Made by a program: the position numbers and the translations under genes. A DNA stretch of 64,000 nt. Source: an uncultured Chloroflexia bacterium (GTDB taxonomy: Bacteria > Chloroflexota > Limnocylindria > Limnocylindrales > CSP1-4). Of the stretch, positions 5,361-43,917 are shown in pieces (position 1 is the first letter of the stretch; every line of letters starts with the position of its first letter). The notes under the pieces were generated by a model. The model had not been told where the DNA came from and did not search any database. It saw nothing but the letters and a program-made list of their open reading frames with translations. The DNA is taken from contig CAWEZH010000002.1 of NCBI GenBank assembly GCA_963813535.1, forward strand, positions 1,408,001 through 1,472,000, written 5' to 3'.

Positions 5361-6023
5361 TCAGCCCTGGCCGCCGGTCCCGAACTGGCGGTCCCCGGCG
5401 TCACCCAGGCCCGGCATGATGTAGCCCTTCTCGTTGAGGCCGCGATCGAGCGCGGCGCAATGGATCTCGACGTCCGGGTGCGCGGTCTGGACCGCCGCCA
5501 CACCTTCCGGCGCGGCGATCAAGTTCACGAGCTTGATCCGCACCGGCTGCACGGCGCCCCAGCGCTTGAGCACGTCGATGGCCGCGGTGGCGCTGCCACC
5601 CGTCGCCAGCATCGGGTCGAGGATCAGGCACAGGTCGACGGTCGCGGAGTCCGGCAGCTTGTTGTAGTACTCGACGGGTCGCAGCGTCCGCTCGTCGCGG
5701 AACAGGCCGAGGTGCCAGACCTGGGCGGTCGGCATGAGCTCGAGCATCGCGTCGACCATGCCGAGGCCCGCTCGCAGGATGGGGATCAGGCCGATCCGCT
5801 CGCCGAGCTCGCTCGCGTCCATCTCCTCCATGGGGGTCCGGATGCGGAGCGGGCGGGTCTTGACGTCCTGGAGCGCCTCGTAACCGAGCAGCCAGCTGAG
5901 CTCGCGCACGACCTCGCGGAACTTCTTGGGCTCGGTGTCCTGGTCGCGCAGGACGGCGAGCTTGTGCAGGACTGCCGGGTGCGTCGAGACGTGCAGGGTC
6001 TCGCGAAGGTCGGGCTGGGTCAC
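5361..6023 (-). CDS. upp: Uracil phosphoribosyltransferase
   Basis: [20 protein letters not shown] (PRPP motif), [17 protein letters not shown]. Confidence 0.97.
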
Positions 6024-6121
6024 GGCGCGATGGTAGCGCGACCCGAGGAGGGCGATCCCTGGAATCCGAAGGGCCGGCCCGACGGATCGGACCGGCCCTC
6101 CTCATCGCACGGTGACTGGGG

Positions 6122-7288
6122 TCAGTTGCCGCCGGCTGTCACCTCGACGGTGCCCTTCACGAAGGATTCGCCCTTGGTGTCCGCATCGGCGAGCTCCCCG
6201 AGCGCGGCCTCGGCGAGGTCCGTCCGATAGGCGTCCGCCGGCGGCGCCGCCTTGATGACGCCCGCGCCGAGCGAGACGTCGACGGTCTGCTGCCATTGGG
6301 CCGCGTCCATCATGCCGATACCCGCGGGGGACGGCCAGATCAGCGGGTTGATCTCGTTCATCATCCAGCGCTGATGCCCGGCCGGCAGCTGCGAACCGGC
6401 ATCGACGGTCGACTGGATGCAGTCGTCCGGGTTCTCGCGGCAGTAGACCCAGCCCTGGAACGAGGCCTTCAGGAACGCCTTGGCGATGTCTTCATTGCCG
6501 GCTTCTGCGAGCCACGCGGCGCGCGCGAAGAGCGCGTCCTGCAGCATCGCGACACCCTCGTCGTTCCAGTTGATGACGTTGAGGTCGGTCGGCTGGTACA
6601 GCTCGCCCGACTCAGGATTCGTCGCCTCGAGGACCTGGGCGTACTCGTTGTAGATCATCGCCTCGGCGACGTCGATCTGCTTCGAGAGCAGCAGGGTCAT
6701 GTCGAACGGCTGGATGACCTTCTCGTAGTCGGTGCCCTGCTCGAGACCGGCCTTCTTGGCGCCGGCCGTGACCTCGAACTCGTTGCCGAAGTCCCAGACG
6801 CCGATCTTCTTGCCCTTGAAGTCGGCCGGCTTGGTGATATTCGTGTCCTTCCACGAGACGGACAGGGTGCCCGAGCGCTGGAAGATCTGGGCGATGTTCA
6901 CGAGGTCGGAACCGGCCTCGCGGGCCTCGAGGACCTTGGGGACCCACGAGATGGTGAACTCGGGGCCATCGGGCGCCGAGCCGACCTGCTGCGGGACCAC
7001 GGTCGGGCCGCCATCGAGGATCGTGACGTCGAGACCGGCGGCCTCGAAGTAGCCCTGGTCCTTCGCGGCGAAGTAGCCCGCGAACTGGGCCTGCGGCGCC
7101 CACTGCAGCTGGAGGCTGACCTTGGTCAGCTCGGCCGGCGCGCTGGCAGACGGCTCGGTCGATGCGGACGCGCTCGCTGCGGGCTCGCTCGCCGACGGCG
7201 CGCTCGTCGCTGCTCCGCCGCTCGTACACGCGGCGAACAGCATGCTGGCCGACGCGGCCAGTGCCAGGACCATCCTGGATCGCTTCAT
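6122..7288 (-). CDS. ABC transporter substrate-binding lipoprotein, NMT1/THI5-like (probably pyrimidine)
   Basis: Lipobox LFAAC, LQLQWAPQAQFAGYFAAKDQGYF, DVAEAMIYNE. Strong GGAGGAGG RBS before ATG 7288. Confidence 0.88.
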   Translation of the reverse strand: MKRSRMVLALAASASMLFAACTSGGAATSAPSASEPAASASASTEPSASAPAELTKVSLQLQWAPQAQFAGYFAAKDQGYFEAAGLDVTILDGGPTVVPQQVGSAPDGPEFTISWVPKVLEAREAGSDLVNIAQIFQRSGTLSVSWKDTNITKPADFKGKKIGVWDFGNEFEVTAGAKKAGLEQGTDYEKVIQPFDMTLLLSKQIDVAEAMIYNEYAQVLEATNPESGELYQPTDLNVINWNDEGVAMLQDALFARAAWLAEAGNEDIAKAFLKASFQGWVYCRENPDDCIQSTVDAGSQLPAGHQRWMMNEINPLIWPSPAGIGMMDAAQWQQTVDVSLGAGVIKAAPPADAYRTDLAEAALGELADADTKGESFVKGTVEVTAGGN

Positions 7289-7346
7289 GGCTCCTCCTCC
7301 AGATTCCTTCGACCCCGCGGGGTCGTTGACGTCGCGCGGCACGCCC

Positions 7347-8201
7347 CTACGGCTCATCCGCTCGGATGGACGCGTGCCAGGGGATGAAGATCCGTTCAAG
7401 GATGACGACGGCCAAGTAGAACACGATACCGGTCACCGCGGCCAGCAGGACGGCCGCCCACGTGACGTCGAAGCGCAGCGCGCTCGACGCCTGGACGATG
7501 ATCCGGCCGAGGACCAGCGATGATCCCCCGAAGTACTCCCCCACGATCGCGCCGATCAGGCTCAGGGTCGTGGCCACCTTGAGGGCGGTGAAGAAGTACG
7601 GGAGTGCGGTCGGCACGCGGACCTTGCGCAGGACCGTCCACTCGGACGCGGCGTAGGAGCGCATCAGCTCGAGCGCGGCCGGCTCCGCAGCCGTCAGCCC
7701 GCGGGTGACGTTCACCATCACGGGGAAGTACACGAGCACCGCGGCCATCATCATCTTGCTCAACGGCGACAGCGCCCCGAACCAGTTGTTCATCAACGGC
7801 GCGAACGCGATGATCGGGATCGCGCCGGCGGCCACGCCGATCGGGATGAGGGTGTTCCTGGCCGTCGCCCAGCGCGAGGTGAGGAACGCGGTCCCGACGC
7901 CGGCGACCGTCCCGATGACCAGCCCGCCGACCGCCTCGAGCATGGTCGCCTGCCACGACGGCAGCAACCCAAATCGGCCGGTGGCCCAGTTGTCTGCGAG
8001 GGCGGCGATGATCGCCGATGGTCGCGGCAGGATGAATGCACGCAACCCGATGGCGCCCACGATCAGCTCCCAGGCGACGATCGCGCCCACGAACACGATC
8101 ACGGCCGGCGCGTATTCGACGACCCGACGTCCGGCGTCGCTCCCCCGACCCGGACCCGACCCGATCGGTCGGCCTGGCACCGCCTCAGCTCGCGCGCTCA
8201 T
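7347..8201 (-). CDS. ABC transporter permease (SsuC/TauC-like)
   Basis: LPRPSAI, IPIIAFAPL, EAA-loop region LELMRSYAAS, ALPYFFTALK, GAIVGEY. Confidence 0.92.
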   Translation of the reverse strand: MSARAEAVPGRPIGSGPGRGSDAGRRVVEYAPAVIVFVGAIVAWELIVGAIGLRAFILPRPSAIIAALADNWATGRFGLLPSWQATMLEAVGGLVIGTVAGVGTAFLTSRWATARNTLIPIGVAAGAIPIIAFAPLMNNWFGALSPLSKMMMAAVLVYFPVMVNVTRGLTAAEPAALELMRSYAASEWTVLRKVRVPTALPYFFTALKVATTLSLIGAIVGEYFGGSSLVLGRIIVQASSALRFDVTWAAVLLAAVTGIVFYLAVVILERIFIPWHASIRADEP

Positions 8202-9076
8202 CCGACCGCGCCCTCGGCAGTCGTCCGGCGGGCCGACGCGATCGCCTCGGTGTCGGGGTCAGTCAGCCCTTCGCGGCCGCGCAGGGCCTCGCGGACCTGC
8301 GTGACCACCTCGAAGTAGCGCTCGCTCTCGCGCGTCTCCTCGTCGCGTGGACGAGGCAGGTCGACGTCGATGACGCTGGCGATGCGGCCCGGGCGTGGAC
8401 TCATGACGACCACCCGCGACGACATGAACACGGCCTCCGGGATCGAGTGCGTGACGAAGACGATCGTTGTCCCGGTGCGGTCCCAGATCCGCTGGACCTC
8501 CGAGTTCATGCGTTCCCGGGTCATCTCATCGAGCGCCCCGAACGGTTCGTCCATCAGCAGGATCGAGGGCTCGAATGCGAGCGCGCGGGCGATCGCCACG
8601 CGCTGCTGCATCCCGCCCGACAGCTGCCACGGGTAGTGATGGACGAAGTCCTCGAGCTCGACCAGGTCGAGCATCTCGGCGGCCTTCGCCTGGCGACGCG
8701 CCGCGTCGAGACCCTGGATCTCGAGCGGGAGCTTGACGTTGTCCTCCACCGTCCGCCAGTCGAACAGGACGGGTGCCTGGAACACCATCCCGTAGTCGCG
8801 GTCGCGCCGGGCACGATCGGCCGGCTTGCCGTTGACGATGACGCTGCCGCTCGACGGCTTGATGAGGTCGCCGATGATCCGCAACAGGGTCGACTTGCCG
8901 CAGCCGGACGGTCCGATCAGCGACACGAATTCCCCTCGACGGATGTCGAGGTCGATCCCGTCGAGCGCGGTCATCTCCGAGCCGTCGCGCCGCGCGAAGA
9001 CCCGGCCCACGTCGGACAACCGGACGACGGGTTCCGGATTCGCCGTGCCGTCTGCTGCAGTCACGGAGTCCGCCAT
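8198..9076 (-). CDS. ABC transporter ATP-binding protein (SsuB/TauB-like)
   Basis: Walker A GPSGCGKST, signature LSGGMQQRVAIARAL, Walker B LLMDEPFGALD, VTH. ATG 9076 overlaps the upstream stop (TGATG). Confidence 0.95.
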   Translation of the reverse strand: MADSVTAADGTANPEPVVRLSDVGRVFARRDGSEMTALDGIDLDIRRGEFVSLIGPSGCGKSTLLRIIGDLIKPSSGSVIVNGKPADRARRDRDYGMVFQAPVLFDWRTVEDNVKLPLEIQGLDAARRQAKAAEMLDLVELEDFVHHYPWQLSGGMQQRVAIARALAFEPSILLMDEPFGALDEMTRERMNSEVQRIWDRTGTTIVFVTHSIPEAVFMSSRVVVMSPRPGRIASVIDVDLPRPRDEETRESERYFEVVTQVREALRGREGLTDPDTEAIASARRTTAEGAVG

Positions 9077-10002
9077 CACGTCGCGCTCGGGGCCGTGCGC
9101 CCGCGCAGCAAGAAGCGCTCGGCCAGCCAGATGCAGCCGAAGAACACGACGCCGAGGAGCGAGGCCGCGAGGATCGCCGCCCACAGCTTCTCCGGACCCG
9201 TGATGTAGTACTGGTTGAACGTCGTGATGACACGGCCGAGACCGGCCTGGATGCCGCCCGTGTCCTCCCCGATGATGGCGCCGACGATGCTCGCGCTCGC
9301 CGCGATCTTGAGCGCGGTGAACAGGTACGGCATGGATGCCGGCAGGCGGAGCTTCCAGTAGATCGTCGAGCGTGACGCAGCGTAGGAGCGCATCAGCTCG
9401 AGCGAACGCGGGTCGAACGAGCGCAGGCCGCGGATCATCGCGATCGTCACGGGGAAGAAGGTCAGGTACGTGGCGATGATGACGACCGACAGGACGCCCT
9501 GCCCCAGCGCGAACACGATCAGCGGCGCGAGCGCGATGATCGGGATGGTCTGGCTAGCGATGACGTAGGGCACGAACGCACGCTCCATCAGCCGCGAGTG
9601 CACGAAGATCGTCGCGAGCAGAAGCCCGAGGAACGCGCCCAGCAGGAACCCGATCCCCGCCTCGCGCCAGGTGTAGAGCGAGGCGCCGACGAGGTACTCG
9701 GCGAGGCTCTGGTCTGCGTTGCGTTGGAACGGCTGGCCGAGCGCGTAGGCGATGTTCCAGACGTGGGGCAGGTTCAGGTCGTTCGCGAACGCCCAGCGGA
9801 ACGGCGGATCCCAGAGGACCGGGGCGCCGGGGCCGGCACCGATCGGGCGCCACGGAACGCCACCCAGGAACTTCGCGCCTTCCCACACCGCCAGGACGAG
9901 CAGCAGGAACAGCCCGAACGTGACGAGCGGCTTCGCTCTCGAGCGGACCGCCGACCCGCGCCAGACGGACGCGCGATCGCTCTGGATCACGGTCGTCGCC
10001 AT
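9076..10002 (-). CDS. ABC transporter permease (SsuC/TauC-like)
   Basis: SQTIPIIALAPL, LELMRSYAAS, PYLFTALK, VGAIIGE and multiple TM helices. Confidence 0.92.
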   Translation of the reverse strand: MATTVIQSDRASVWRGSAVRSRAKPLVTFGLFLLLVLAVWEGAKFLGGVPWRPIGAGPGAPVLWDPPFRWAFANDLNLPHVWNIAYALGQPFQRNADQSLAEYLVGASLYTWREAGIGFLLGAFLGLLLATIFVHSRLMERAFVPYVIASQTIPIIALAPLIVFALGQGVLSVVIIATYLTFFPVTIAMIRGLRSFDPRSLELMRSYAASRSTIYWKLRLPASMPYLFTALKIAASASIVGAIIGEDTGGIQAGLGRVITTFNQYYITGPEKLWAAILAASLLGVVFFGCIWLAERFLLRGRTAPSAT

Positions 10003-10007
10003 GTCGC

Positions 10008-11345
10008 CTAGCCGGTCACCACCTGGTCGGCGATATCGAGCGCCGCGTCGATGGTCTCGAAGCCCTCAGCGAGCTCGTCCTCCGTGATGCACAGGGGCGG
10101 GTTCGTGTGGATCGAGTTGTTGGCGATCAACGTGTACAGCCCGTGCTCGCGGAGGTACTTGCCGATGGCCTTCATCTCGTCGGACGTGCCGTTGAACGGG
10201 GTCATCGGTGTCCACGGGTCCCGGCTGCGGACGAGGTCGAGGATGCCGAAGAGGCCGAGGTTCCGGGTCGCCCCGACCGACGGGTGCTTCGCTGCGAGCC
10301 GGTCGTGGTGCTCACGCATGCGCGTCCCCATCCGCGCGGCGTTCTCGATGAGCCCGTCCTCCTCGTAGACGCCGATCGTCGCCAGCGCGGCGGCGAGCGA
10401 GACGGGATGTGACGAATAGGTCAGGCCGCCGTAGAACATCTTGTCCTCGAACGCCTCGGCGATGCCGCGGCGCATGGCGACCGCGCCCAGCGGCAGGTAC
10501 GACGACGTCAGGCCCTTGGCCATCGTCATCAGGTCGGGCACGACATCCCAATGGTCGACCGCGAACCAGCGGCCGGTCCGGCCGAACCCGGCCATCACCT
10601 CATCGGCCACCATCAGGATCCCATGGCGATCGCAGATCTCGCGGACGCCCTGGAGGTAGCCGTCAGGCGGGATCAGGATCCCGTTCGTGCCGACGATGGT
10701 CTCGAGGAAGACGGCGGCGATGGTCTGCGGGCCTTCGTAGCGGATGACGTCCTCGAGACCCTGCAGGCTCTCCTCGACCGGCCGCGGCTCCTTCTCGCCC
10801 CAGCGATGCGTGTCCGGGTAGCGAACGACGCCGACCAGGCCAGGCTCGTTGGCCCAGCGGCGCGGATCGCCGGTCAACGTCATCGCGCCAAGAGTGGCGC
10901 CGTGGTAGGCCCGGTAGCGTGCCAGCACCTTGTACCGCCCGCTGAAATGGCGCGCCAGCTTGATCGCATTCTCGATGGCCTCGGCGCCACCCAACGTGAA
11001 GAAGACCTTGTCGATGTCGCCGGGCAGGATCTCCGCCAGCTTCTTGCCGAGCCTGCCCCGGATCTCCGTCGCGAACGCGGGCTGGACGTACTGCAGCTTG
11101 GTCGCCTGCTCGGTGATCGCGTCGATCACCCGCCGGTCGCCGTGACCGATGTTCACGGACATCAGCTGGCTGTTGAAATCGAGGATCCGCGTGCCGTCAG
11201 GCGTGTACAGCCAGACGCCCTCGGCGTGATCGATGACGATCGGGTCGACCGCCCCCTGGACCGACCACGAGAAGAAGGTGTGCGCGCGGTTGAGAGCGAC
11301 GATCTCTTCGGTCGTCATCGCCCCGGATGCGGTGCTGATGCCCAT
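10008..11345 (-). CDS. Class III PLP aminotransferase (beta-alanine/taurine:pyruvate type)
   Basis: GGAEAIENAIKLAR, YHGAT, ADEVMAGFGRTG, PDLMTMAKGLT (PLP Lys), GLTYSSHP. GGAGGAG RBS. Confidence 0.92.
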   Translation of the reverse strand: MGISTASGAMTTEEIVALNRAHTFFSWSVQGAVDPIVIDHAEGVWLYTPDGTRILDFNSQLMSVNIGHGDRRVIDAITEQATKLQYVQPAFATEIRGRLGKKLAEILPGDIDKVFFTLGGAEAIENAIKLARHFSGRYKVLARYRAYHGATLGAMTLTGDPRRWANEPGLVGVVRYPDTHRWGEKEPRPVEESLQGLEDVIRYEGPQTIAAVFLETIVGTNGILIPPDGYLQGVREICDRHGILMVADEVMAGFGRTGRWFAVDHWDVVPDLMTMAKGLTSSYLPLGAVAMRRGIAEAFEDKMFYGGLTYSSHPVSLAAALATIGVYEEDGLIENAARMGTRMREHHDRLAAKHPSVGATRNLGLFGILDLVRSRDPWTPMTPFNGTSDEMKAIGKYLREHGLYTLIANNSIHTNPPLCITEDELAEGFETIDAALDIADQVVTG

Positions 11346-11418
11346 GGCTCCTCCTCCGGCGCCCGCGGGCGCGAGACCGGATTACAGCACATCTGCCGGG
11401 GGCCGACGGGTGGATGCG

Positions 11419-12372
11419 TCAGACGGGCTGTCGGCTGGGGGCACGAGGATCGTCAGCGCGGCCGGGATCGACACGCGCCGCGAGCCAGCCCGGCGGGTGC
11501 GTGTCGCCGTCGGACTCGACGGGTTGCGGCGGCTCCGTCTCGATGCGCACCTCGCGGACGGTCCGGCGGATGGCCGTCCCGTCGAGCCGCCCCTTGCGCA
11601 CCAGCAACTCGACCGTACTGCGCAAGCCTCTCGCCAGACCCCGACCACCCACCACCACCAGGTCGAGCCGACCGTCGCTCGGATCGATCGGCTCACGCGG
11701 GCCGAGGCGGCCAGGGATGAGCTCTCCGAGGTTGGCGACGAGCGCCAGGTGACCTTCAAGCTGGAGTCGTTCGCCGTCGGCGACGATGTCGAAGGCGGTC
11801 GGTCTGAGCCGCGTGAGCTCGCGAAGCGCCGCACCGACATAGGCAGCGAACCGCAGACGGTGCTTCAAGTCCTCGTGGGCTGTCGCCATGATCCGCGCGT
11901 CCAGCCCGACGCCCGCTGCCACGACGAACGTCCTCCGTCCGTCGGGTTCGTCCACGCCGTAGCGGCCCCACTCGGCAAGGCCGAGGTCGATGGTACGCGG
12001 AACCCCGTCACGGATGACAGCCACGGCCGAGCGGACACCGTGGACCCCGATGCTTGCGGCGAGGACGTTGCCGGTCCCGGCCGGCACGATCGCGAGCGGC
12101 GTGGACCGACCCGCAAGGATCTCGGCCGCGTGGCGGACGGTCCCGTCCCCGCCGATCGCCGTGATCAGCGGGGACTCCACATGGCGCCGCAGCGCCGCCG
12201 ACGCGGCCTCCTCGGTGTCGTCGACCACGACCGGCTCCCGAGCCGTACGGTCCCGGATGGCACGCGCGATGACCTTGACGGTGGCCGTCCGCCGGTCGGG
12301 ATCGCGAAGCCGCGCTGCACGCGGGTTGACGACGAGGAGCGGAGCCGAGGGATCGCCCGCGATCGATGCCAT
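11419..12372 (-). CDS. Diacylglycerol kinase family (YegS/BmrU-like) lipid kinase
   Basis: VVNP, IGGDGTV, PAGTGNVLA, AGVGLDA, DGRLD, ESDGD. Confidence 0.88.
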   Translation of the reverse strand: MASIAGDPSAPLLVVNPRAARLRDPDRRTATVKVIARAIRDRTAREPVVVDDTEEAASAALRRHVESPLITAIGGDGTVRHAAEILAGRSTPLAIVPAGTGNVLAASIGVHGVRSAVAVIRDGVPRTIDLGLAEWGRYGVDEPDGRRTFVVAAGVGLDARIMATAHEDLKHRLRFAAYVGAALRELTRLRPTAFDIVADGERLQLEGHLALVANLGELIPGRLGPREPIDPSDGRLDLVVVGGRGLARGLRSTVELLVRKGRLDGTAIRRTVREVRIETEPPQPVESDGDTHPPGWLAARVDPGRADDPRAPSRQPV

Positions 12373-12424
12373 GCAGCGCCGAATGCTACCGTGTCCAGGA
12401 CGAGGGGCAGCCCGGAGGAGACCA

Positions 12425-12829
12425 ATGGATCGCGCCGGATTCCGTGCCTGGCTCCAGCGTTATGTCGACGCGTGGCGGCTCAACGACCCGGTCGCCGTCG
12501 GCGACCTGTTCAGCCCCGAGGTGCGGTACGCCTTCGACCCGTTCAGCGAGGCGGTCGTCGGACGGAATGCGCTCATCGAGTCGTGGCTGGACGACCCCGA
12601 CGATCCCGCGTCGTGGGAGGCCGACTACGAGGTCCTCGCGGTCGATGGTGACGTCTTCGTGGCGCACGGCCGGACCCGCTACCTGACGGACGACCGCTCC
12701 GCGATCGACCGCGAGTTCGCGAACGTGTTCGTCTGCCGCTTCGACGAGGACGGTCGCTGCCGGGAGTTCACCGAGTACTACATGCGCCGTCGTCCGGAGA
12801 CGTCCGTCGAAGAGTCGGTCGTCGACTAG
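12425..12829 (+). CDS. SnoaL-like / NTF2-family protein
   Basis: WLQRYVDAWRLND...DLFS...PF...GRNALIESW, FANVFVCRFDEDGRCREFTEY. GGAGGAG RBS before ATG 12425. Confidence 0.85.
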   Translation: MDRAGFRAWLQRYVDAWRLNDPVAVGDLFSPEVRYAFDPFSEAVVGRNALIESWLDDPDDPASWEADYEVLAVDGDVFVAHGRTRYLTDDRSAIDREFANVFVCRFDEDGRCREFTEYYMRRRPETSVEESVVD

Positions 12830-13770
12830 GACCCACTCGGAACGACGACTCGCAATGCCCGCGGGCGCGTGCGATACGAGACGGGCGTGTGTCCGAGATC
12901 GATGCCGTCGCCGCGCGCCGGGAGCGGATGCACGCTGGTGATCCGGACTTCGGCTGACCGGTAGGTCCTGGCTTGCGGCGCATACCGCCGCCGGCCGAAC
13001 GAGATCGACGCCAGGTGGCGCAGGAGCTCCCACTTCGAGTACGTCGAGAAGATCGTCACGTCGAACCGGCCGTCGTCGAGCCGGGCCGCGGGGGCAACGG
13101 TCATGCCGAGCCCGAGGTATGGTCCGATGGAGGCCGCGACCATCAACCCACGCGTCGACACCGTCTGACCGTCGAGCTCGATCGTCATCCGTGCCGGTCG
13201 ATAGCGGAACGCGACGGCGATCGTCCGCGGTATCGACACCGCATCCCCCTCATCGGCCCGCGTGACCTCGCGAAAGATCGCGGCGTTGAGCCCGACGGAG
13301 CCGGCCTCGAGGAACGGGACGACGCGCCCGTCGGCGGCGATCGCCTCACCGGTGTCCACCTCCCGGATGACGCCCGATGCCAGGACCTCGGCCGCCTGAT
13401 CGATGTCACGCCCGATACCGAGCGCACGGGCGATGTTCATGACCCGGCCCAGCGGCAGGATCCCGAGTGCCGTCCCTGTCCCGAGCAGGCCCTCGGCAAC
13501 CAGGTGTACCGTGCCATCGCCGCCGGCTGCGACCACGATGTCGACACCCTCGGCGACGGCGTGGCGCACGATCGCGCGGGCTTCCACCGCGTCGGACGGT
13601 TCCTCGACCTCGGCCACGACGCCGTGACGTTCGAGGACCTCGTGCAGCTCGTCGGCCGAGCCGCCCGCCTGGAGCGCGGTCGGCAAGCCGGCCGACGGGT
13701 TCCAGATGACGAGGATCCGCGGCGCTTCGGTCGGGGTCGTCGCCGTCGGGATCGCCTCGGGCTCCGTCAT
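12826..13770 (-). CDS. Diacylglycerol kinase family (YegS/BmrU-like) lipid kinase
   Basis: IWNPSAG, AAGGDGTV, LPLGRVMNIARALGI, LDDGRFDV, RGDG. ATG overlaps the PAP2 stop. Confidence 0.88.
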   Translation of the reverse strand: MTEPEAIPTATTPTEAPRILVIWNPSAGLPTALQAGGSADELHEVLERHGVVAEVEEPSDAVEARAIVRHAVAEGVDIVVAAGGDGTVHLVAEGLLGTGTALGILPLGRVMNIARALGIGRDIDQAAEVLASGVIREVDTGEAIAADGRVVPFLEAGSVGLNAAIFREVTRADEGDAVSIPRTIAVAFRYRPARMTIELDGQTVSTRGLMVAASIGPYLGLGMTVAPAARLDDGRFDVTIFSTYSKWELLRHLASISFGRRRYAPQARTYRSAEVRITSVHPLPARGDGIDLGHTPVSYRTRPRALRVVVPSGS

Positions 13771-14468
13771 GCGCGCTCGCGCGTGGTGCGCGCCTTCAGG
13801 CCTCGGTACAGGCGAGACAGACCCAGCAGATAGCTGATGCCCAGCAGGTACGACGCGCTCACGTCCGTGAGCCAGTGGTGGCCCTGGTGGACGCGGCTCG
13901 GTCCGACGAGCGCAACCAGCGAGAGGAGCGCACCGACGACCAACCGCCTGAGCCACGCGGGTCGCAGGAGGGTGTACGCGAGGTAGGCGAGGAACCCGTA
14001 TACGCCGACATACGTGATGGTGTGACCGCTCGGAAAACTCGATCCGCCGAGCGGCGCGGCGATCACCCGGACATCGACGCCGGCGACCGGCCGAGGCCGT
14101 TTCATCAGCGCCTTGACCAGCGACGCAAGGAGCGCCGTCCCCCATGCACCGACCATCGCGATCGCCTCGAGGCGCAGCCGTAGGGCCAGCAGCATCGCCA
14201 CGATCACGGCCGGGATGATCCGGCTCTGGGGCGGGAATCCGGGCCATGAGACCGCTTGCATCAGCCGGGCGAGTGACGGGTGGGAAAAGCGCTGCAGCTT
14301 CATCGTCACGGCGAGGTCGATCGCGTCGCTCCGCCGGGCGCGGACGAGCCCGAAGATCGCAAGAAACCCGACGAGGCCCAGTCGCTCGAGCAGGGCTGCC
14401 GTCCGGCCGCGGCGGACCGCTATTCGTGGTGGGGCGACCTCGACGGGCGAGTGGGTCAGCTGGGTCAC
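13767..14468 (-). CDS. PAP2-family membrane phosphatase
   Basis: C1 motif KALMKRPRP, C2 SFPSGH, C3 SRVHQGHHWLTDV, with TM helices. Probable GTG start at 14468. Confidence 0.9.
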   Translation of the reverse strand: MTQLTHSPVEVAPPRIAVRRGRTAALLERLGLVGFLAIFGLVRARRSDAIDLAVTMKLQRFSHPSLARLMQAVSWPGFPPQSRIIPAVIVAMLLALRLRLEAIAMVGAWGTALLASLVKALMKRPRPVAGVDVRVIAAPLGGSSFPSGHTITYVGVYGFLAYLAYTLLRPAWLRRLVVGALLSLVALVGPSRVHQGHHWLTDVSASYLLGISYLLGLSRLYRGLKARTTRERA

Positions 14469-14729
14469 CCCCCGAGCATGGGATGGCCGAAGGGAGGCGG
14501 GCCCGTCGCGAGACGAAGGCTGCCTGCCAGCTCCATTACAAGCGGACGACATGCCACGGCCGTGCCGTCCTTGGCGCCGGTGGTGTCGCCGGCCGCCGCT
14601 CCACGGCAACGCGAGGGCACGGCGACGGCCGGGCGACGTGCATGTGTCTCCGGCGTTCACCACGCCGCGGGTGGCGGTGTACCCTCCCCTCTCCAACTGC
14701 CACGACGCGACCGAAGAGGGAAGCCGACC

Positions 14730-15581
14730 ATGCCGCGAATCGTCCGTGGGGCGCTCGTCCAGGCCAGCTGGACCGGCGACAAGGAATCGATGATCCAGAA
14801 GCACGAGGAGCGGGCGGTCGAAGCGTCCAGGCAGGGCGCCCAGGTGATCCTGTTCCAGGAGCTCTTCTACGGCCCGTACTTCTGCCAGGTCCAGGACGCC
14901 CAGTACTACAGCTACACCGAGCTGATCCCCGACGGTCCCACGACCAAGCGGATGCAGGACCTTGCCAAGGCGACCGGCATGGTCGTCGTGGCCCCGATGT
15001 ACGAAGAGGACGCGCAGGCGTCCGGCATCTACTACAACACCGCGGCGGTCATCGACGCTGACGGCACCTACCTCGGCAAGTACCGCAAGACCCACATCCC
15101 GCACGTCAAGGGGTTCTGGGAGAAGTTCTACTTCCGCCCGGGGAACCTCGGCTACCCGGTCTTCGAGACGGCCGTCGGCAGGGTCGGCGTGTACATCTGC
15201 TACGACCGGCATTTCCCGGAGGGCGCGCGAGCGCTCGGGCTCAACGGTGCCGAGATGGTGTTCATCCCGTCGGCCACGTCGCGCGGCCTGTCGGAGTACC
15301 TGTGGCGGATCGAGCAGCCCAGCCACGCCGTCGCGAACGGCTACTACGTGGGCACCATCAATCGGGTCGGGATCGAGAAGGAATTCGGTGACGACGACTT
15401 CTATGGCCAGAGCTACTTCGTCGATCCGCGCGGCCAGTTCGTCGGCGACGTGGGCGATGCGCACGACGAGGAGCTGATCGTCCGCGACCTCGATCTGGAC
15501 AAGATCGCCGAGGTCCGCAACACATGGCAGTTCTACCGCGACCGGCGGCCGGACGCATACGACGACTTGACACGCCCGTAG
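14730..15581 (+). CDS. Nitrilase-superfamily amidohydrolase, beta-ureidopropionase-like
   Basis: Catalytic triad FQELF (Glu), YRKTHIP (Lys), ICYDRHFPE (Cys); WEKFYFRPGNLGYPVF; WQFYRDRRP. Context with hydA supports the call. Confidence 0.88.
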   Translation: MPRIVRGALVQASWTGDKESMIQKHEERAVEASRQGAQVILFQELFYGPYFCQVQDAQYYSYTELIPDGPTTKRMQDLAKATGMVVVAPMYEEDAQASGIYYNTAAVIDADGTYLGKYRKTHIPHVKGFWEKFYFRPGNLGYPVFETAVGRVGVYICYDRHFPEGARALGLNGAEMVFIPSATSRGLSEYLWRIEQPSHAVANGYYVGTINRVGIEKEFGDDDFYGQSYFVDPRGQFVGDVGDAHDEELIVRDLDLDKIAEVRNTWQFYRDRRPDAYDDLTRP

Positions 15582-15708
15582 GCGCTATCATCCCCGCCGG
15601 CTCGGCTGTCAGGAGGAGGACAGCCGAGCCCTCACTGCAATGGCTCGCGGAGCGTCGCCTTGCTGTTCGGGGAGCGAGCGACGGATCGCCGTTGAGGTTG
15701 CCATTACC

Positions 15709-16698
15709 ATGCGATTCGGGTTCACCCTCAAGCCTGAGCACACCATCGAGCGCACCCTGGCGCTGACGCGCCAGGCGGAGGCGGCCGGCTTCGAGTACGG
15801 CTGGCTGTTCGACAGCCACGTCCTGTGGCGGGATCCCTATCCCCTGTTGACGCTCATGGCCGGCGCGACGGAGCGGCTGCGTCTCGGGACCTGCGTGACC
15901 AACCCCGGCACGCGCGAACCCTCCGTGACGGCCTCGGCGTTGGCGACACTGGACGAGATCAGCGACGGCCGGATGGACCTTGGCATCGGCCGGGGTGACT
16001 CGGCCCGCCGGGTGCTGGGCAAGCCACCGATCACGCTCGCCCACACCGAAGAGGCGATCAACGTCATCCGGACGCTGGTCGCCGGGAAGTCGATCGACTA
16101 CGAGGGCACGGAGCTGACGTTCCCGTGGACCCGCGGCTGGACCCTGCCGGTCTGGGTCGCTGGCTATGGACCCATGGCCATCGCCATGACCGGGCGCGTG
16201 GCGGACGGGCTCATCCTGCAGCTGGCGGACCCCGACCTCATCCGCTGGTTCGTGGGTCAGCTGCACGAGGCCGCAACGGCAGCCGGTCGTGACCCGGCAT
16301 CGCTCCAGGTGCAGGCGGCGGCGCCCGCCCACATCGGCCCCCGCGAGCTCGGCCGCGAGCGAACGCGCTGGTTCCCGGCACTCGTCTCGAACCACGTGGT
16401 CGACCTCGTGAACAAGTACCCCCGTGAGCAGTTGCCCGAGGCACTCACCGGCTACATCACCGATCGCACCGGCTACGACTATCACCACCATGCCGAGGTC
16501 GGGTCGTCGAATGCGGCGTTCGTCGGCGACGAGGTCGCCGATCGGTTCTGCGTCCTCGGCGAGGTCGGCGAGCACATCGACAAGCTGCACGAGCTGGCGG
16601 ACGCCGGTGTCGACCAGTTCAACCTCTACCTGATGAACGGCGATGAGGAACAGCAACTCGAGGCGTACGGCACGGACGTCATCCCAGCCTTCCGCTGA
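15709..16698 (+). CDS. LLM-superfamily, Mer-like putative F420-dependent oxidoreductase (resembles the TIGR03842 family)
   Basis: GWLFDSHVLW, LGTCVTNPGTR, GRMDLGIGRGDSA, VAGYGP..G.VADGLILQ, VDQFNLYLM. Confidence 0.85.
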   Translation: MRFGFTLKPEHTIERTLALTRQAEAAGFEYGWLFDSHVLWRDPYPLLTLMAGATERLRLGTCVTNPGTREPSVTASALATLDEISDGRMDLGIGRGDSARRVLGKPPITLAHTEEAINVIRTLVAGKSIDYEGTELTFPWTRGWTLPVWVAGYGPMAIAMTGRVADGLILQLADPDLIRWFVGQLHEAATAAGRDPASLQVQAAAPAHIGPRELGRERTRWFPALVSNHVVDLVNKYPREQLPEALTGYITDRTGYDYHHHAEVGSSNAAFVGDEVADRFCVLGEVGEHIDKLHELADAGVDQFNLYLMNGDEEQQLEAYGTDVIPAFR

Positions 16699-16840
16699 CC
16701 GTCGGCCGGCGCGAGGCCCTCCCCGACGAGGCAGGTACTGGCCAGGATGTCCGGCTGGTCAGCGGTACCTGATCTCGGCGACGATGGACCTCGCGCCGCA
16801 CGGTCCCCCCGCCGTGCCGCGACTCGCACCGGAGGAGCGG

Positions 16841-17026
16841 ATGGCCGCCAAATTCAATCGCGGGCCGGATCCGTTCTGGGACGATGGCCGCGGTGCCCGC
16901 CGCCGCAACATGGTCCAGCGCACGGAAGCGTCGCTGGCCCTCATCCTCGCGATCGCCGCATGCGGCCTCACCGCCGCGATGTGGCTGCGCCAGGTGATCC
17001 TGCCGCTGTTCGGCGTCAGCATCTGA
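16841..17026 (+). CDS. Small single-TM hypothetical protein (61 aa)
   Basis: GGAGGAG RBS before ATG 16841; basic N-terminus followed by a hydrophobic helix (LALILAIAACGLTAAMWL). Confidence 0.55.
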   Translation: MAAKFNRGPDPFWDDGRGARRRNMVQRTEASLALILAIAACGLTAAMWLRQVILPLFGVSI

Positions 17027-17125
17027 CCCTCCGGCCCCGCCGTCCCACTCCGCGGCGAGCGGCCCATCGCCTACCATCTCCCTCCTGACCGCCACGCCGT
17101 CGTCGTCCGAGGAGGGACCGCTTCG

Positions 17126-18524
17126 ATGCGCACGCTGATCGCGAACGGCACCATCGTCACCGCGGAGGGGTCGCAAGCCGCCGATGTCCTGATCGACGGC
17201 GAGACGATCGCCGCGATCGGTGCCGGTCTCGAGGCCGCCGGCATGACGGCCGACGAGACGATCGATGCCTCGGGCAAGTACGTCATCCCAGGCGCCATCG
17301 ACGTGCATACCCATATGGAGCTGCCGTTCGGCGGGACCTTCGCCAAGGACACATTCGAGACGGGGACCCGGGCGGCAGCCTTCGGCGGGACGACGACGAT
17401 CGTCGACTTCGCCGTGCAGTCGCGTGGCAAGTCGCTGCGCGAAGGGCTCGACGCATGGCACGCCAAGGCCGAGGGCAACGCCGTCGCCGACTATGGCTTC
17501 CACATGATCATGAGCGACGTCAACGACGACACGCTCAAGGAGATGGACGGGCTGGTCGCCGAGGGCGTTCCCGACTTCAAGCTGTTCACCGCATACCCGG
17601 GCGTCTTCTACAGCGACGACGGGGCGATCTTCCGGGCCATGCAGCAGACCGCGAAGAATGGCGGGCTGATCATGATGCACGCCGAGAACGGGATGGCCAT
17701 CGACGTGGTCGCGGAACAGACCGTCGAGGCCGGTACGACCGACCCGATCGGCCACGGCCTCGCTCGCAAGGCCGTCTTCGAGGGTGAGGCCACCAACCGC
17801 GTCATCCGCCTGGCCGAGGCGGCCGGCGTGCCGGTGTACATCGTCCACCTGTCGGCGAGCGAGGCATTGGCCGAGATCCGGGCGGCACGCGACCGCGGCT
17901 CGAAGGCCTTCGCCGAGACGTGCCCGCAGTACCTCTTCCTGTCGCTCGATGACCTCGGCAACGGGTTCGAGGGCGCCAAGTTCGTCTGCTCGCCACCGCT
18001 CCGGCCCAAGAGCCACTGGGACGACCTGTGGACCGGTCTCGTCAAGGACGACCTCCAGATCGTCTCGACCGACCACTGCCCGTTCGACTTCCACGGCCAG
18101 AAGGAGCTCGGTCGTGGCGACTTCCGCAAGGTCCCGAACGGGCTGCCGGGCGTCGAGGACCGGGTCGACCTGATGCACGACGGCGGGGTCGTGGGTGGCC
18201 GGATCACGAAGGAGCGCTGGGTCGAGATCGTGTCGACCGCGCCGGCCAAGATGTTCGGGATGTACCCGCAGAAAGGGGTCGGTCAGCGTCGGCGCCGATG
18301 CCGACCTCGTGGTCTACGACCCCACCAGGAAGCGGACGATCTCGGCGAAGACCCATCACATGGACGTCGACTACTCGTGTTACGAGGGTCGCGAGGTCCA
18401 GGGTGCGAGCGAGGTCGTCCTCTCACGTGGCTCGGTCATCGTGCGCGATGGCGAGTTCACCGGTCGCAAGGGCCAGGGCAGGTTCATCAAGCGCGGGGCC
18501 GCGGATCACGCGCGGATCTCCTGA
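17126..18524 (+). CDS. hydA: Dihydropyrimidinase / D-hydantoinase, with an apparent +1 frameshift at ~18272-18278
   Basis: PGAIDVHTH, AAFGGTTTIVDF, FKLF, MHAENG, VHLS, ETCPQYL, STDHCPF, PNGLPGVE. The C-terminus (KGSVSVGADADLVVYDP...YSCYEG) continues in the +1 frame after AAAGGGG. Confidence 0.93.
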
Positions 18525-18536
18525 AGGAGCACGCCG

Positions 18537-19010
18537 ATGGCGATCGCAGACACGAGATTCGGTCACGTCAACGTCACGTCGCACGATTGGCGGCGGCTGG
18601 CCGCGTTCTACACCGACGTGTTCGGTTGCACCCTGGTGCCGCCAGAGCGCGACATCCGCAGCGCTGACCTGGATGCCGCCACCGGTCTCACCGACGCCCA
18701 CCTGACCGGTGCCCACCTGCGGTTGCCCGGTCACGGCGACAACGGCCCGACGTTGGAGATCTTCTCGTACGACCAGCTCGACCGGCACCCGGGTGGCCGG
18801 GTCGACCGCCCGGGCTGGGGCCATGTCGCGTTCCAGGTCCCCGACGTCCCGGCGGCCGTCGATGCGGTCACGGCGGCCGGCGGCGGTCGCATCGGCGACG
18901 TGATCACGACGCAGACCGCCGACGGCCGGCGCGTGACGTGGGTCTATGCGACCGATCCCGACGGCAATCTCGTCGAACTGCAGGCCTGGTCGGCCGCGAG
19001 CGACCGATAG
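18537..19010 (+). CDS. VOC (glyoxalase/bleomycin resistance) family protein
   Basis: GHVNV..FYTDVFG, LEIFSY, GHVAFQV.DV, DPDGNLVELQ. AAGGAG RBS. Confidence 0.88.
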   Translation: MAIADTRFGHVNVTSHDWRRLAAFYTDVFGCTLVPPERDIRSADLDAATGLTDAHLTGAHLRLPGHGDNGPTLEIFSYDQLDRHPGGRVDRPGWGHVAFQVPDVPAAVDAVTAAGGGRIGDVITTQTADGRRVTWVYATDPDGNLVELQAWSAASDR

Positions 19011-19015
19011 CGCGG

Positions 19016-19453
19016 ATGGTCGCCGCGCGCCGGCATGCCCGTGTTCCGGCCGAGCTCGAACGACTGGCCGAGCTTCGCGCGATCGTCCGGGACGTGGCCA
19101 AAGGGTGCGAAGCGCCGGCCGACTGCATCGACGACCTCGTCCAGGCCGTCGACGAGGCCGCCACGAACACCATCCGCTACGGCTATCGCGGCGAACCCGG
19201 CTGGATCGACCTGACCGCCGAGCTTGTCGCGGACGACATCGTCATCACCCTGGAGGACGAGGCACCCGAGTTCGACCCGACCGGCGCTCCGTCCCCGGAC
19301 ATGACCGTGCCGGCCGACCGGCGTCCGCCGGGCGGCATGGGAATCCACCTGATGCGCCTCGCGACCGACTCGATCGAGCATCGGGCGCGACCGGGCGGTG
19401 GCAACATACTCAGGCTGACGCGGTCGAGGGCCCGCGGCCCGAAGGAGGAGTGA
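19016..19453 (+). CDS. Anti-sigma factor / Ser kinase, RsbW-like HATPase_c
   Basis: AVDEAATNTIRYGY (N box), LEDEAPEFDP, GGMGIHLM, GN. Confidence 0.85.
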   Translation: MVAARRHARVPAELERLAELRAIVRDVAKGCEAPADCIDDLVQAVDEAATNTIRYGYRGEPGWIDLTAELVADDIVITLEDEAPEFDPTGAPSPDMTVPADRRPPGGMGIHLMRLATDSIEHRARPGGGNILRLTRSRARGPKEE

Positions 19454-21604: not shown

Positions 21605-24600
21605 TCAGGCGGGGCGGAGGGCGATCAGCTGCGCGACGTTGCCTGATGACTGCGAGGACGTGGCCGCGAACGTACCGGTCGCGCCCGCTGCCGCCCGGAT
21701 GGCACTCGCGGACATCAGGGAGGTGAACTGGCTCGGCGAGGTGCCGATCAGGTCGCAGCGTTCCGTGAAGCCGGCCGGCGGCGTCCAGGTCGAGCCTGCC
21801 ATGTTCCCGAAGATGGCAACGAGCATCGTGTTCGCGACCGGGGTCGTGATCGACGGCGCGGTCGCCGTGGTCGAAGCGCTGGCCGCCACCTGGCCGCCCG
21901 AGGCGGCGATCGGGTTGGCCGTGTTGACGCCGCTGTAGGCATGGATCGTGCCGGCAGCCAGGCGGGATGCCGAGAACGTCCAGGTCCACGATGCGGGATC
22001 CCCGCCAGCCGCCACACGCCAGTAGGTGTGCATGCGGAGGCTGGATGTGTACGTATCGGTCCGGATGAGCGTCCAGCCAGCCGGCGCTGTCACGGTGGAG
22101 GTCCCGCGGACACCGAGCGACGCGAGGAGCAGGTCTCCCGCCACCGTGCCTGTCGGCCGGGCGAGGTTGATGCTGGTCGTGGAGGCGTTGTTGGAGCCGA
22201 AGCTGACGGCGCGGAAGGCGATGCCGCTGCCCGCCGGCACGTCGGTCACGGTCCAGGTGAAGGTGTCGGTGGCATCGACGGCCGGACCGTCGCGCACGGT
22301 GATGGACACGGCATACGGGCTCGAGGCGGCGGCCACCGAGCTGATCGTGCCGGTGATCAGGCCGGTCGACGTGTTGATCGACAGCCCTGCAGGCAGGTTC
22401 GTGGCCGCGTACGTCAGCGGATCACCGTCGGGATCGGTCGCTCCTGCATCGAGGGTGACGCCCGTGCCCTCGGGGTCGGTCCGGTTGCCCAGGTTCTGGT
22501 CGAAGGTGGGCGGCAGGTTCGGACCCGGGACGTCGGTCACGGTCCATGTGAACGTGTCGGTCGCGTCGACCGTGGCCCCATCGCGGACCGTGATCGACAC
22601 CGCATACGGGCTGCCGGCTGCCGCGGTCGAGTTGATGGTGCCGGTGATCAGGCCGGTGCCGGTCGCGATCGACAGACCCGGCGGGAGGTTCGTGGCGGCG
22701 TAGGTCAGCGGATCACCGTCGAGGTCGGTCGCGCCCGCATCGAGGTTGACGACCGTGCCTTCCGGATCCGTCCGGTTGGGCAGGTTCTGGTCGAACGTCG
22801 GCTCGTTGTTGACGGGCGGCGGTCCGCCGGCCGCCGGTCGGAGGGCGATGAGCTGGGCGGCGTTGCCGGACGACATCGTCGCCGATGCCACGGCCGTACC
22901 GGTCGCGCCGACGGCCGGCCGAAGCACGTCGGCCGACATCATGGACGTGAACTGCGAGGGCGACGTGCCGATCAGGTCGGCTCGTTCGACGAAGCCCGCG
23001 GGCGGCGTCCATGTGGTGTTGGCGAGGTTTGCGTAGAACGCCACGAGCATCGTGTTCGCGACCGTGGTGGTGATCGACGGCGCCGTCGACGTCGCGGAGG
23101 GTGACGCGGCGGGCTGACCACCGGAGGCGTCGATCGGTGTCGTCGTGTTGACCCCGCTGTACGCGTGGACCACGCCGGCCGCCAGACGCGAACCCGAGAA
23201 CGTCCATGTCCACGTCGCCGGATCGGATCCGGTCGCCAGGCGCCAGTAGACGTGCATGCGCAGGCTGGACGTGTACGTGTCGGTACGGATCAGCGCCCAG
23301 CCCGCGGGGGCAGTGACCGTGGACGTCCCGCGCACATCGAGGGACGCGAGCATCACATCGCCCGCGAGCGTGCCCGTGGGCCGGTTCAGGACGATGCTCG
23401 TCGACGAGGCGTTGTTCGAGCCGGAGCTGACGGCCCGCAGCGCGATGGGAGCGCCCGCCGGCACATCGGTGACCGTCCACGTGAAGATGTCGGTGGCGTC
23501 GACGGTCGCGCCGTCGCGGACCGTCACGCTGACGCTGTACGGGCTGCCGGCCGCGGCGGTCGAGCTGATCGTGCCGGTGATCAGACCTGTCGCGGTGTTG
23601 ATCGTCAGGCCGGTGGGCAGATTCGTCGCTGCGTACGTCAGCGGGTCATTGTCGAGATCCGTCGCCCCGGCGTCGAGGCTGATGACCGCCCCTTCTGGAT
23701 CGGTCCGGTTCTGGACGTCCTGGTCGAAGGTGGGCTCGCGGTTCACGTTGGTGACGGTCCACTGGAACGTATCGGTCGCATCGACCGTGGGGCCGTCGCG
23801 GACCGTCACGGACACGTTGTACGGGCTTCCCGCGGCCGCGGTGAACGCGATGGTGCCGGTGATGAGGCCCGTGCCGGTGTCGATGCTCAGGCCAGCTGGC
23901 AGACCCGTGGCGGCATAGGTCAGCGGGTCGCTCTCGGGGTCGGTCGCCCCGGCATCGAGGCTGATGACCGCGCCCTCGGGGTTCGACTGGCTCGGCACGT
24001 CCTGGTCGAACGTCGGTGGCTGATTGGGTGGCGGCACCTCGGTGACCGTCCAGGTGAAGGTGTCGGTCGCATCGACCGTCGCGCCATCACGGACCGTCAC
24101 GCTGACGCTGTACGGGCTGGTGTCCGCGCCAGTGGCGCCGATCGTGCCGGTGATCAGACCGGTCGTCGGGCTGATGCTGAGCCCAGGTGGCAGATTCGTC
24201 GCGGCGTAGGTCAACGGGTCGCCATCGAGGTCGGTGGCGCCGGCGTCGAGGCTGATGACCGCACCCTCGGCATGGTTCTGGTTCGGGACGTCCTGATCGA
24301 ACGTGGGCTCACGGTTCACGTTGGTGACGGTCCAGGTGAACGTGTCGGTGGCGTCGACGGTCGCGCCGTCGCGCACAGTGACGCTGACGCTGTACGGGCT
24401 TCCAGCGGCCGCGGTGAAGGCGATCGTCCCGGTGATGAGGCCTGTCGACGTGTTGATCGACAGACCCGCCGGCAGGTTCGTCGCGGCGTAGGTCAGCGGA
24501 TCGTTGTCGAGGTCGGTCGCCCCGGCATCCAGGGTGATGACGGCGGCCTCGGCATGGTTCTGGTCCGGGACGTTCTGGTCGAAGGTCGGTTCGTTGTTGA

Positions 24601-43711: not shown

Positions 43712-43732
43712 CCTCGGTACAACCGAAGAGCA

Positions 43733-43836: not shown

Positions 43837-43917
43837 GGTCTCTCCCGGGGCCCATCGATCGACAGGTCCTGACCCATCCACGCCGGTCCGTCGCCGACGA
43901 GCGACCTGGAGACCGAT

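Follow-up and report, generated by a model that had tools for sequence, protein, structure and literature searches.

A TIGR03842 luciferase-like protein as a candidate F420H2-dependent uracil/thymine reductase in a pyrimidine catabolism cluster of Chloroflexota

Introduction

RutA, the flavin mononucleotide (FMN)-dependent pyrimidine oxygenase of the Rut pathway, is a luciferase-like TIM-barrel (LLM) protein that acts on uracil. Here we describe another setting in which an LLM appears to serve pyrimidine breakdown: a 64,000-nucleotide stretch of an uncultured Chloroflexia bacterium (hereafter the window; G000:C2:1408001-1472000), in which the gene for an LLM of family TIGR03842 lies between a CN-hydrolase gene and hydA, the gene for dihydropyrimidinase (PydB). 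Gene context, fold and distribution point to an F420H2-dependent uracil/thymine reductase, a reading to which we assign a probability of about 0.6, and the protein is very probably part of pyrimidine catabolism.

Among the described systems, clostridial PydA is a ferredoxin-dependent dihydropyrimidine dehydrogenase (PMC7332683), and LxmJ, a dehydroalanine reductase, is an LLM that uses F420H2 to reduce a C=C bond (PMC8498797). The latter source, a review of F420 from 2021, counts what F420 does in Chloroflexi among the open questions; the word 'uracil' does not occur in its text, and those of its passages that were found hold nothing on pyrimidine catabolism (PMC8498797). No publication linking F420 to pyrimidine catabolism was found among those listed (subscription journals and supplementary files lay outside the search), nor any on TIGR03842 or joining luciferase-like proteins, hydantoinase and F420.

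Results

The LLM gene and its cluster

The window belongs to a soil-type genome of 3.28 Mb in 3 contigs that is 92.9% complete. The G+C content of the window is about 69%, and open reading frames (ORFs) were picked by guidance from the G+C content at third codon positions and then scanned with Pfam and NCBIfam models. The genes for uptake and breakdown of pyrimidines are as follows.

14730-15581, plus strand: CN-hydrolase (PF00795, 218 bits; likely start ATG at 14730)
15640-16698 as the long ORF, 15709-16698 from the likely start ATG at 15709, plus strand: Mer-like LLM (TIGR03842, 425.9 bits against a cut-off of 295.45)
17126-18524, plus strand: hydA, dihydropyrimidinase (TIGR02033, 478 bits against a cut-off of 393; one-base frameshift near 18277)
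10008-11345, minus strand: class III aminotransferase (PF00202, 295 bits; NF004718, 539.4 bits against a cut-off of 472)
35187-36722, minus strand: mmsA, coenzyme A (CoA)-acylating (methyl)malonate-semialdehyde dehydrogenase (TIGR01722, 724.2 bits against a cut-off of 448.5)
6122-7288, minus strand: NMT1/THI5-type lipoprotein substrate-binding protein (SBP) of an ATP-binding cassette (ABC) importer (PF09084, 117.8 bits; start ATG at 7288)
7347-8201, minus strand: permease of the ABC importer (PF00528/PF00005 scan)
8198-9184, minus strand: ATPase of the ABC importer (PF00528/PF00005 scan)
9076-10002, minus strand: second permease of the ABC importer (PF00528/PF00005 scan)
5361-6023, minus strand: upp, uracil phosphoribosyltransferase (PF14681, 247.7 bits; TIGR01091, 246.6 bits against a cut-off of 208.35)

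The LLM covers positions 2-329 of the 329 of the TIGR03842 model (F420_CPS_4043), with 425.8 bits in the genome-wide search. It is the only copy above the cut-off in a genome that holds more than 20 F420-type LLM paralogues, and its family still carries the label 'hypoth_equivalog' in NCBIfam release 20. PF00296 is its only Pfam domain, and DHO_dh, Fer4 and NAD(P)-binding domains are absent. The initial annotation, made from the window alone, had read the locus as reductive pyrimidine catabolism with a TIGR03842-like LLM in the position of the uracil reductase. Both the family assignment and every gene that it named were recovered by the Pfam and NCBIfam scans, with the LLM placed between the CN-hydrolase and hydA. 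Its gene set is amended here by the frameshift in hydA, two kinase genes inside the cluster, the displacement of mmsA and the failure of the nitrilase-like protein to reach an equivalog.

That protein, whose CN-hydrolase domain begins at residue 158 of the long ORF, reaches no curated equivalog family (best NCBIfam match aguB, 264 bits against a cut-off of 410). Its closest solved structures are an N-carbamoylputrescine amidohydrolase (3.2e-61) and beta-ureidopropionases (2.7e-52 to 8.9e-50), consistent with a putative beta-ureidopropionase in the role of PydC. The aminotransferase has taurine:2-oxoglutarate aminotransferase 6jix as its closest solved structure (1.7e-98) and would act on beta-alanine/beta-aminoisobutyrate. 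The NMT1 binding protein carries a lipobox-like, lipoprotein-type signal MKRSRMVLALAASASMLFAAC, and the solved structures nearest to it are 4nmy and 3ix1, the latter of the pyrimidine binder ThiY, suggesting that it too binds pyrimidines. The SBP-permease-ATPase-permease block also adjoins LLM-hydA in relatives (L064, L065, L068, L069). The genes from upp to the kinases lie on the minus strand, and the CN-hydrolase, LLM, hydA and VOC genes run divergently on the plus strand. The mmsA gene stands about 17 kb from the cluster, from which it is separated by about 12.6 kb of surface-protein genes (21605-34237, LamG/He_PIG); in relatives the distance between mmsA and the LLM is 3-10 kb.

One surplus base in the run AAAGGGG near 18277 shifts the frame of the last 88 residues of hydA, which then end at 18524, the end coordinate given in the initial annotation. 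By tblastn, residues 1-384 lie in frame 1 and residues 378-465 in frame 2, and the TIGR02033 match spans only model positions 2-383 of 454. The surplus base is missing from all 14 relatives printed from the alignment. Since an Fgd-family gene (G000:C3:933153-934134) is likewise split across two frames, indel errors in the assembly are suspected, and the hydA frameshift may be one of them. No public run contained half of the sampled words when source reads were sought for the frameshift, the best share being 0.26. The genome also carries a second, full-length dihydropyrimidinase-like gene (G000:C1:101565-102941, 425.7 bits), which is 38% identical to the hydA of the window and sits on a long tree branch.

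Conservation of the neighbourhood

The best named relatives of the LLM locus, at no more than 89% identity, come from Candidatus Limnocylindria/Limnocylindrales and from metagenome-assembled genomes labelled 'uncultured Chloroflexia'. In a phylum sample of 401 Chloroflexota genomes, TIGR03842 exceeded its cut-off in 62, and hydA was present at E<=1e-80 in 179 and above its cut-off in 140. When the tables were compared by hand, hydA (E<=1e-80) occurred in 62/62 LLM-positive genomes versus 117/339 LLM-negative ones. It lay within 6.5 kb of the LLM on the same contig in at least 51 of the 62, a hand count that is a lower bound, 150 of the 268 hydA places being listed. The hydA tally includes genome G145, flagged as unpublished, and the cofD tally given below includes G344, G227, G173, G145 and G038, likewise flagged; none of these is LLM-positive, and nothing else reported here depends on them.

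Three sets of loci were scored for genes near the LLM.

Window plus 20 fetched 20-kb regions (n = 21): hydA 19, CN-hydrolase 15, aminotransferase 8, mmsA 9, ABC ATPase 11, SBP 8
Named loci from Chloroflexota, Terriglobia and one Actinomycetota (n = 80): hydA 51, CN-hydrolase 57, aminotransferase 29, mmsA 24, ABC ATPase 21, SBP 17
Metagenome loci, G+C content 0.43-0.72 (n = 80): hydA 44, CN-hydrolase 28, aminotransferase 15, mmsA 34, ABC ATPase 30, SBP 17

The gene caller recovered the LLM itself in 20/21 loci of the first set and missed it in L061. The LLM adjoins hydA and/or a CN-hydrolase in all three sets, which span several phyla, and the Terriglobia loci among the named ones have a different gene order. 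Many of the named loci that show no partner are contigs of a few kb. A upp match near the LLM was seen in 4/80 named loci, and PreTA in 0/80 metagenome loci.

Two further genes adjoin the LLM/CN-hydrolase pair in relatives, namely a heliorhodopsin gene (L057:14820-15848, minus strand) and a gene for a group II pyridoxal phosphate (PLP)-dependent decarboxylase (L052:12024-13448, plus strand; L057 has a clustered homologue). This decarboxylase may be relevant to the metabolism of beta-alanine.

Canonical uracil reductase and sister clusters

Searches with DHO_dh, NF006183 and Fer4_20 found no PreT/PreA in the window, nor elsewhere in the genome, which is 92.9% complete. The genome has a single DHO_dh protein, PyrD (NF005574, 382.9 bits, above the cut-off of 269), and two Fer4_20 proteins, which resemble GltD and do not adjoin PyrD. 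PyrD is also the best match of the genome to the PreA model NF006183, at 120 bits against a cut-off of 335. The lack of a canonical reductase that the initial annotation had noticed in the window therefore extends to the genome as recovered.

Relatives within the window's own family possess Pyd clusters made of mmsA, a fused PreT-PreA (878 amino acids; Fer4_20, Pyr_redox_2, DHO_dh and Fer4_21), hydA, a CN-hydrolase, an aminotransferase and an NCS1 permease. These sister clusters differ from that of the window mainly by having PreT-PreA in place of the LLM, and their proteins are close to those of the window (CN-hydrolase 83-84% identical in L162 and L163, hydA 68-75%, aminotransferase 63% in L162, mmsA 54%). 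Genome G365 carries both types, one cluster with the LLM (L053) and one with PreTA (L162). In a hydA tree of 39 rows, hydA from PreTA contexts is nested within the clade of LLM contexts (13 rows, 100/100 support), to which the hydA of the window also belongs, and hydA from genomes with neither LLM nor PreA forms a separate, long-branched clade. Loci of the latter kind adjoin a CN-hydrolase, aminotransferase or mmsA in 0/14 cases. Loci of family f18 have an NCS1 'uracil/allantoin' permease gene after the LLM, in the place taken by the ABC importer in the window. Taken together, the sister clusters indicate that all examined clusters with hydA and a CN-hydrolase carry either PreTA or the LLM, and the LLM is the only conserved gene of the cluster that lacks an assigned step.

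The occurrence of PreA and of F420 biosynthesis genes was scored as follows.

Whole phylum sample: cofD 257/401; PreA 11/401
LLM-positive relatives in the phylum sample (61): cofD over cut-off 60/61; cofH 3/61; PreA 8/62 (the window's genome included)
Further LLM-positive genomes (16, of which 11 Terriglobia): cofD 13/16 (16/16 at E<=1e-30); cofH 12/16 (11/11 in Terriglobia); PreA 0/16
Sampled cofD-positive, LLM-negative genomes (63): cofH 17/63

PreA exceeds its cut-off in 11 of the 401 genomes, and 8 of these 11 are LLM-positive. In the window's genus, all 4 genomes have the LLM and lack PreA; outside the window's family, PreA is found in 0/46 LLM-positive genomes of the sample and in 0/16 of the further ones. 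From this distribution, the two mostly replace each other, yet they can coexist. The mutual exclusion for which the initial annotation had suggested a test is therefore a tendency (54/62 LLM-positive genomes are without PreA), and in its strict form it was tested and fails (8/62 have both).

Enzyme family, fold and conserved residues

A profile built from 14 LLM members and searched against the PDB matched Mer over its full length at 2.9e-55, followed by FGD2, Adf and Fgd, with FMN enzymes and luciferases ranking later. Foldseek with the predicted model of the LLM (pLDDT 86.3) likewise placed Mer first, at TM-scores of 0.75-0.78, and all chains listed through rank 26 are F420-dependent LLMs. 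The Mer-like, F420-type character ascribed to the protein in the initial annotation is thus borne out by both its closest sequence and its closest fold relatives.

Resemblance to Mer does not extend to Mer function, which was rejected as an assignment. The LLM falls below the cut-offs of both Mer models (NF002619, 157.1 bits against 276; TIGR03555, 136.5 bits against 348.7). Glu6, which is catalytically important in Mer and was mutated in PDB 8qq8 (E6Q), aligns with Thr29 of the window ORF and is not conserved in the family (of 14 members, 12 have Thr there, one has Cys and one has Val). In addition, the genome has no match to Mch (PF02289, methenyl-tetrahydromethanopterin (H4MPT) cyclohydrolase), the sole marker of the H4MPT pathway searched. 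A RutA-like oxygenase was set aside as unlikely, since RutA (TIGR03612, cut-off 498.3 bits) is absent from the 25 best of 31 NCBIfam matches to the LLM, the weakest of those listed scoring 31.9 bits.

Numbered along the long ORF, the invariant residues at the C-terminal ends of the barrel strands are D58-S59-H60, T87-N88-P89, R118-G-D120-S121, Y176, Q194 and D197, and those within the 235-300 insertion are R239, R243, W244, N251, H252, R276, Y279, Y281 and H284. Cofactor and substrate bind in this part of such barrels, and the roles proposed below for single residues are predictions from this placement.

F420 supply

The genome contains a cofD-cofC-cofE operon (C2:1316047-1318374; cofD 297.3 bits against a cut-off of 257.45, cofE 248.5 bits against 180.65, cofC between them), flanked by F420-type LLM and PPOX genes. 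No match to cofG or cofH was found in the 92.9%-complete genome, and a tblastn search with the 871-amino-acid FbiC of a same-family genome found nothing in it. F420 biosynthesis, on which the reductase proposed in the initial annotation would depend, is hence represented by cofC, cofD and cofE and lacks the recognised genes for making the precursor FO. F420 in this bacterium must come from imported FO or from an unknown synthase, or else is not made; no FO importer is evident beside the operon.

The missing FO synthase is a trait of many Chloroflexota and not of the LLM. Across the phylum, many genomes with cofD are without FO synthase, which suggests that FO is taken up or is made by an unknown synthase.

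Physical linkage between cof genes and the LLM is better evidence than co-occurrence with cofD. In 4/4 fetched f3 loci (L057-L060), cofE-cofC-cofD and further F420-type enzymes lie within about 14 kb of the LLM; in G127, cofE-cofC-cofD stands between hydA and the LLM; and in 6/80 named loci, cofE lies 1.2-3.4 kb upstream of the LLM.

Fusion proteins

Among 81 longer LLM homologues, 3 are fusions to a hydA-type amidohydrolase, in both domain orders, 3 are fused to an NCS1 permease and 1 to a CN-hydrolase. A further 55 (P0011-P0070) combine a complete TIGR03842 domain (529-537 bits in the four that were scanned) with an isochorismatase-type cysteine hydrolase that weakly resembles RutB (36-40 bits) and the biuret hydrolase BiuH. 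The one fused locus examined (L182:9971-11875) is accompanied by an NMT1 ABC importer and by ATP-dependent HyuA/HyuB hydantoinases in place of hydA. It fits a general scheme of a reductase followed by a cyclic-ureide hydrolase and a decarbamoylase, and leaves room for substrates other than uracil.

Other features of the window

The remaining genes in and beside the cluster are as follows.

11419-12372 and 12826-14247, minus strand: two DAGK/YegS-family kinase genes (PF00781 and PF19279), the second probably starting later
18537-19010, plus strand: VOC/glyoxalase-family protein (PF00903, 46 bits)

The kinase genes separate the aminotransferase from the CN-hydrolase. Genes for 'lipid kinases' of this type recur by such clusters, adjoining hydA in family f3 loci (L057:8614-9426) and giving matches in 5/80 named loci; a VOC-family gene adjoins hydA in 3/80. 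An ORF between the LLM and hydA (16643-17026) is treated as non-coding or unknown: neither it nor similar small ORFs in relatives match a Pfam family, except for a DUF7712 protein in L057. A promoter and terminator scan of 14000-19300 returned 0 sites of both kinds. The surface-protein region at 21605-34237 (minus strand) comprises a 3122-amino-acid protein with 14 He_PIG immunoglobulin-like repeats and LamG domains, plus two other LamG proteins. The sole match of an Rfam scan of the whole window is an S-adenosylmethionine (SAM) riboswitch outside the cluster (43731-43838, plus strand, 62.4 bits), upstream of a gene for a PLP-dependent (PALP) enzyme at 43918-45249.

Discussion

A reductase reading of the LLM

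In the pathway that we propose, the first enzyme of the Pyd cluster would be a TIGR03842 Mer-like TIM-barrel protein instead of a flavin/iron-sulfur dihydropyrimidine dehydrogenase. Uracil or thymine would be brought in by the NMT1-type ABC system, and the LLM would move a hydride from F420H2, its predicted cofactor, onto pyrimidine C6. C5 may be protonated by a conserved acid at the mouth of the barrel (His60 and Asp120 are candidates), so that the predicted direction is reduction to the 5,6-dihydropyrimidine. hydA would then open the ring, the CN-hydrolase would take off the carbamoyl group, and the class III aminotransferase and MmsA would convert beta-alanine/beta-aminoisobutyrate to acetyl-/propionyl-CoA. 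CofC, CofD and CofE would build F420 from FO that the cell cannot make itself. A bolder version, in which TIGR03842 constitutes a third, non-homologous, F420H2-run class of dihydropyrimidine dehydrogenase and such Chloroflexota obtain F420 from FO taken up from other organisms, is put forward tentatively, and we regard it as a possibility rather than an expectation.

Several observations weigh against the reductase assignment. FO synthase was not found in the host genome nor in 58/61 LLM-positive relatives, and no match to Fno or Fgd exceeds its cut-off in the host genome (104 bits against 149.8 and 115 bits against 420, respectively). Since cofD occurs in 257/401 genomes anyway, its co-occurrence with the LLM discriminates weakly. 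PreA accompanies the LLM in 8/62 LLM-positive genomes, all 8 in the window's family; in four of these (G079, G245, G253 and G397), the listed hydA place adjoins the LLM and PreTA lies elsewhere, so that the LLM is not needed there merely as a gap-filler. The LLM stands apart from hydA in G349 and G301, and loci without hydA are often short contigs, but not all of them are. In addition, hydA is frameshifted in the assembly, and the three LLM-hydA fusions, each a singleton, could be gene-calling artefacts.

We consider it unlikely that the enzyme acts in the same pathway in another role: reduction of some other cyclic ureide or a modified one, be it a substituted pyrimidine or a hydantoin-like ring, oxidation of dihydropyrimidine to pyrimidine for salvage through Upp, or action on malonate semialdehyde/3-hydroxypropionate. 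The joint presence of LLM and PreTA in 8/62 genomes suggests a non-redundant role or substrate, and G365 retains two full clusters. The fused LLM-isochorismatase of L182 pairs with HyuA/HyuB hydantoinases, not hydA, upp is adjacent in the window, and many of the 34 metagenome loci with an mmsA gene have it immediately upstream of the LLM. However, the LLM has its tightest and most widespread partners in hydA and the carbamoyl-amidase rather than in the aminotransferase or mmsA, and an enzyme that reduced a semialdehyde would be in competition with the co-encoded MmsA. Moreover, no PreA that could make the substrate of hydA was found in 54/62 LLM-positive genomes of the sample or in 16/16 further ones.

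A use of FMN or another flavin in place of F420, for example in a RutA-like ring-cleaving oxygenase of a host unable to make FO, is improbable. Such a cofactor would agree with the failure to find cofG, cofH or FbiC in the genome and in 58/61 LLM-positive relatives; RutA is itself an LLM acting on uracil, and the common fusion partner is of an isochorismatase type weakly like RutB. Yet TIGR03612 does not figure in the 25 best of 31 NCBIfam matches, and the closest neighbours in sequence and fold are all F420 enzymes, of which the genome keeps more than 20 LLM-type paralogues. Carrier genomes have cofD over its cut-off in 60/61 and 13/16 cases, cofH does so in 11/11 Terriglobia carriers examined, and cof genes stand beside the LLM in two Chloroflexota families. 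The hydrolytic ring opening is, moreover, already supplied by hydA.

That the LLM is a Mer-type one-carbon reductase or other housekeeping enzyme present in the cluster by chance is very hard to credit: Mer is its closest characterised relative, but the scores lie below the Mer cut-offs (157.1 against 276 and 136.5 against 348.7 bits), Glu6 is replaced by Thr, Cys or Val in 14/14 members, the genome lacks a match to methenyl-H4MPT cyclohydrolase, and the linkage to hydA holds across phyla and gene orders.

If the LLM is the uracil/thymine reductase of these clusters, reductive pyrimidine breakdown has an unrelated way, driven by a deazaflavin, of performing its first, rate-limiting step, and one that is commoner than PreTA in the Chloroflexota sample (62 versus 11 of 401 genomes), with 11/11 Terriglobia carriers examined being without PreA. 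A large family labelled 'hypoth_equivalog' would gain a function, metabolic models of bacteria from soil and fresh water would have their pathway-gap calls corrected, and F420 would have a role in primary metabolism outside methanogens and Actinomycetota, a question listed as open in the review (PMC8498797). The lack of FO synthase in most carriers would present a case of cofactor-precursor dependence. Should the version with a third enzyme class and FO uptake also hold, the pyrimidine catabolism of a widespread soil and freshwater lineage would hinge on a cross-fed deazaflavin, which would provide the first physiological reason for Chloroflexota keeping F420.

Comparison with known systems

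PydA/DPD, E. coli-type PreT-PreA and clostridial PydA carry out the same reaction as is proposed for the LLM, from uracil/thymine to the 5,6-dihydropyrimidine, and PydA/DPD and PreT-PreA occupy the same place in clusters with PydB, a PydC-like amidase, an aminotransferase, MmsA and a pyrimidine transporter. The luciferase-like TIM barrel of the LLM is unrelated to them in fold and cofactor set: its predicted hydride donor is F420H2, whereas PydA/PreTA use NAD(P)H or ferredoxin via FMN, flavin adenine dinucleotide (FAD) and iron-sulfur centres. RutA belongs to the same superfamily as the LLM and also takes part in pyrimidine breakdown; in the window, the ring would instead be opened hydrolytically via hydA, and Rut-type partners were not seen there.

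The closest characterised relative, Mer (PDB 8qpm, 8qpl and 1z69; EC 1.5.98.2), performs a chemistry like the one proposed, in that a hydride passes from F420H2 to a carbon of an N-heterocycle. Unlike Mer, the LLM has its own invariant Arg, Tyr and His residues in the 235-300 region and a gene context of pyrimidine catabolism. Reductases of the LxmJ type, LLMs that act on C=C or C=N bonds, show that the fold can reduce a carbonyl-conjugated double bond with F420H2; they serve secondary metabolism in Actinomycetota, whereas the LLM described here would serve primary nitrogen/carbon catabolism in Chloroflexota and Acidobacteriota. It would be a functional analogue of dihydropyrimidine dehydrogenase, not a member of its family.

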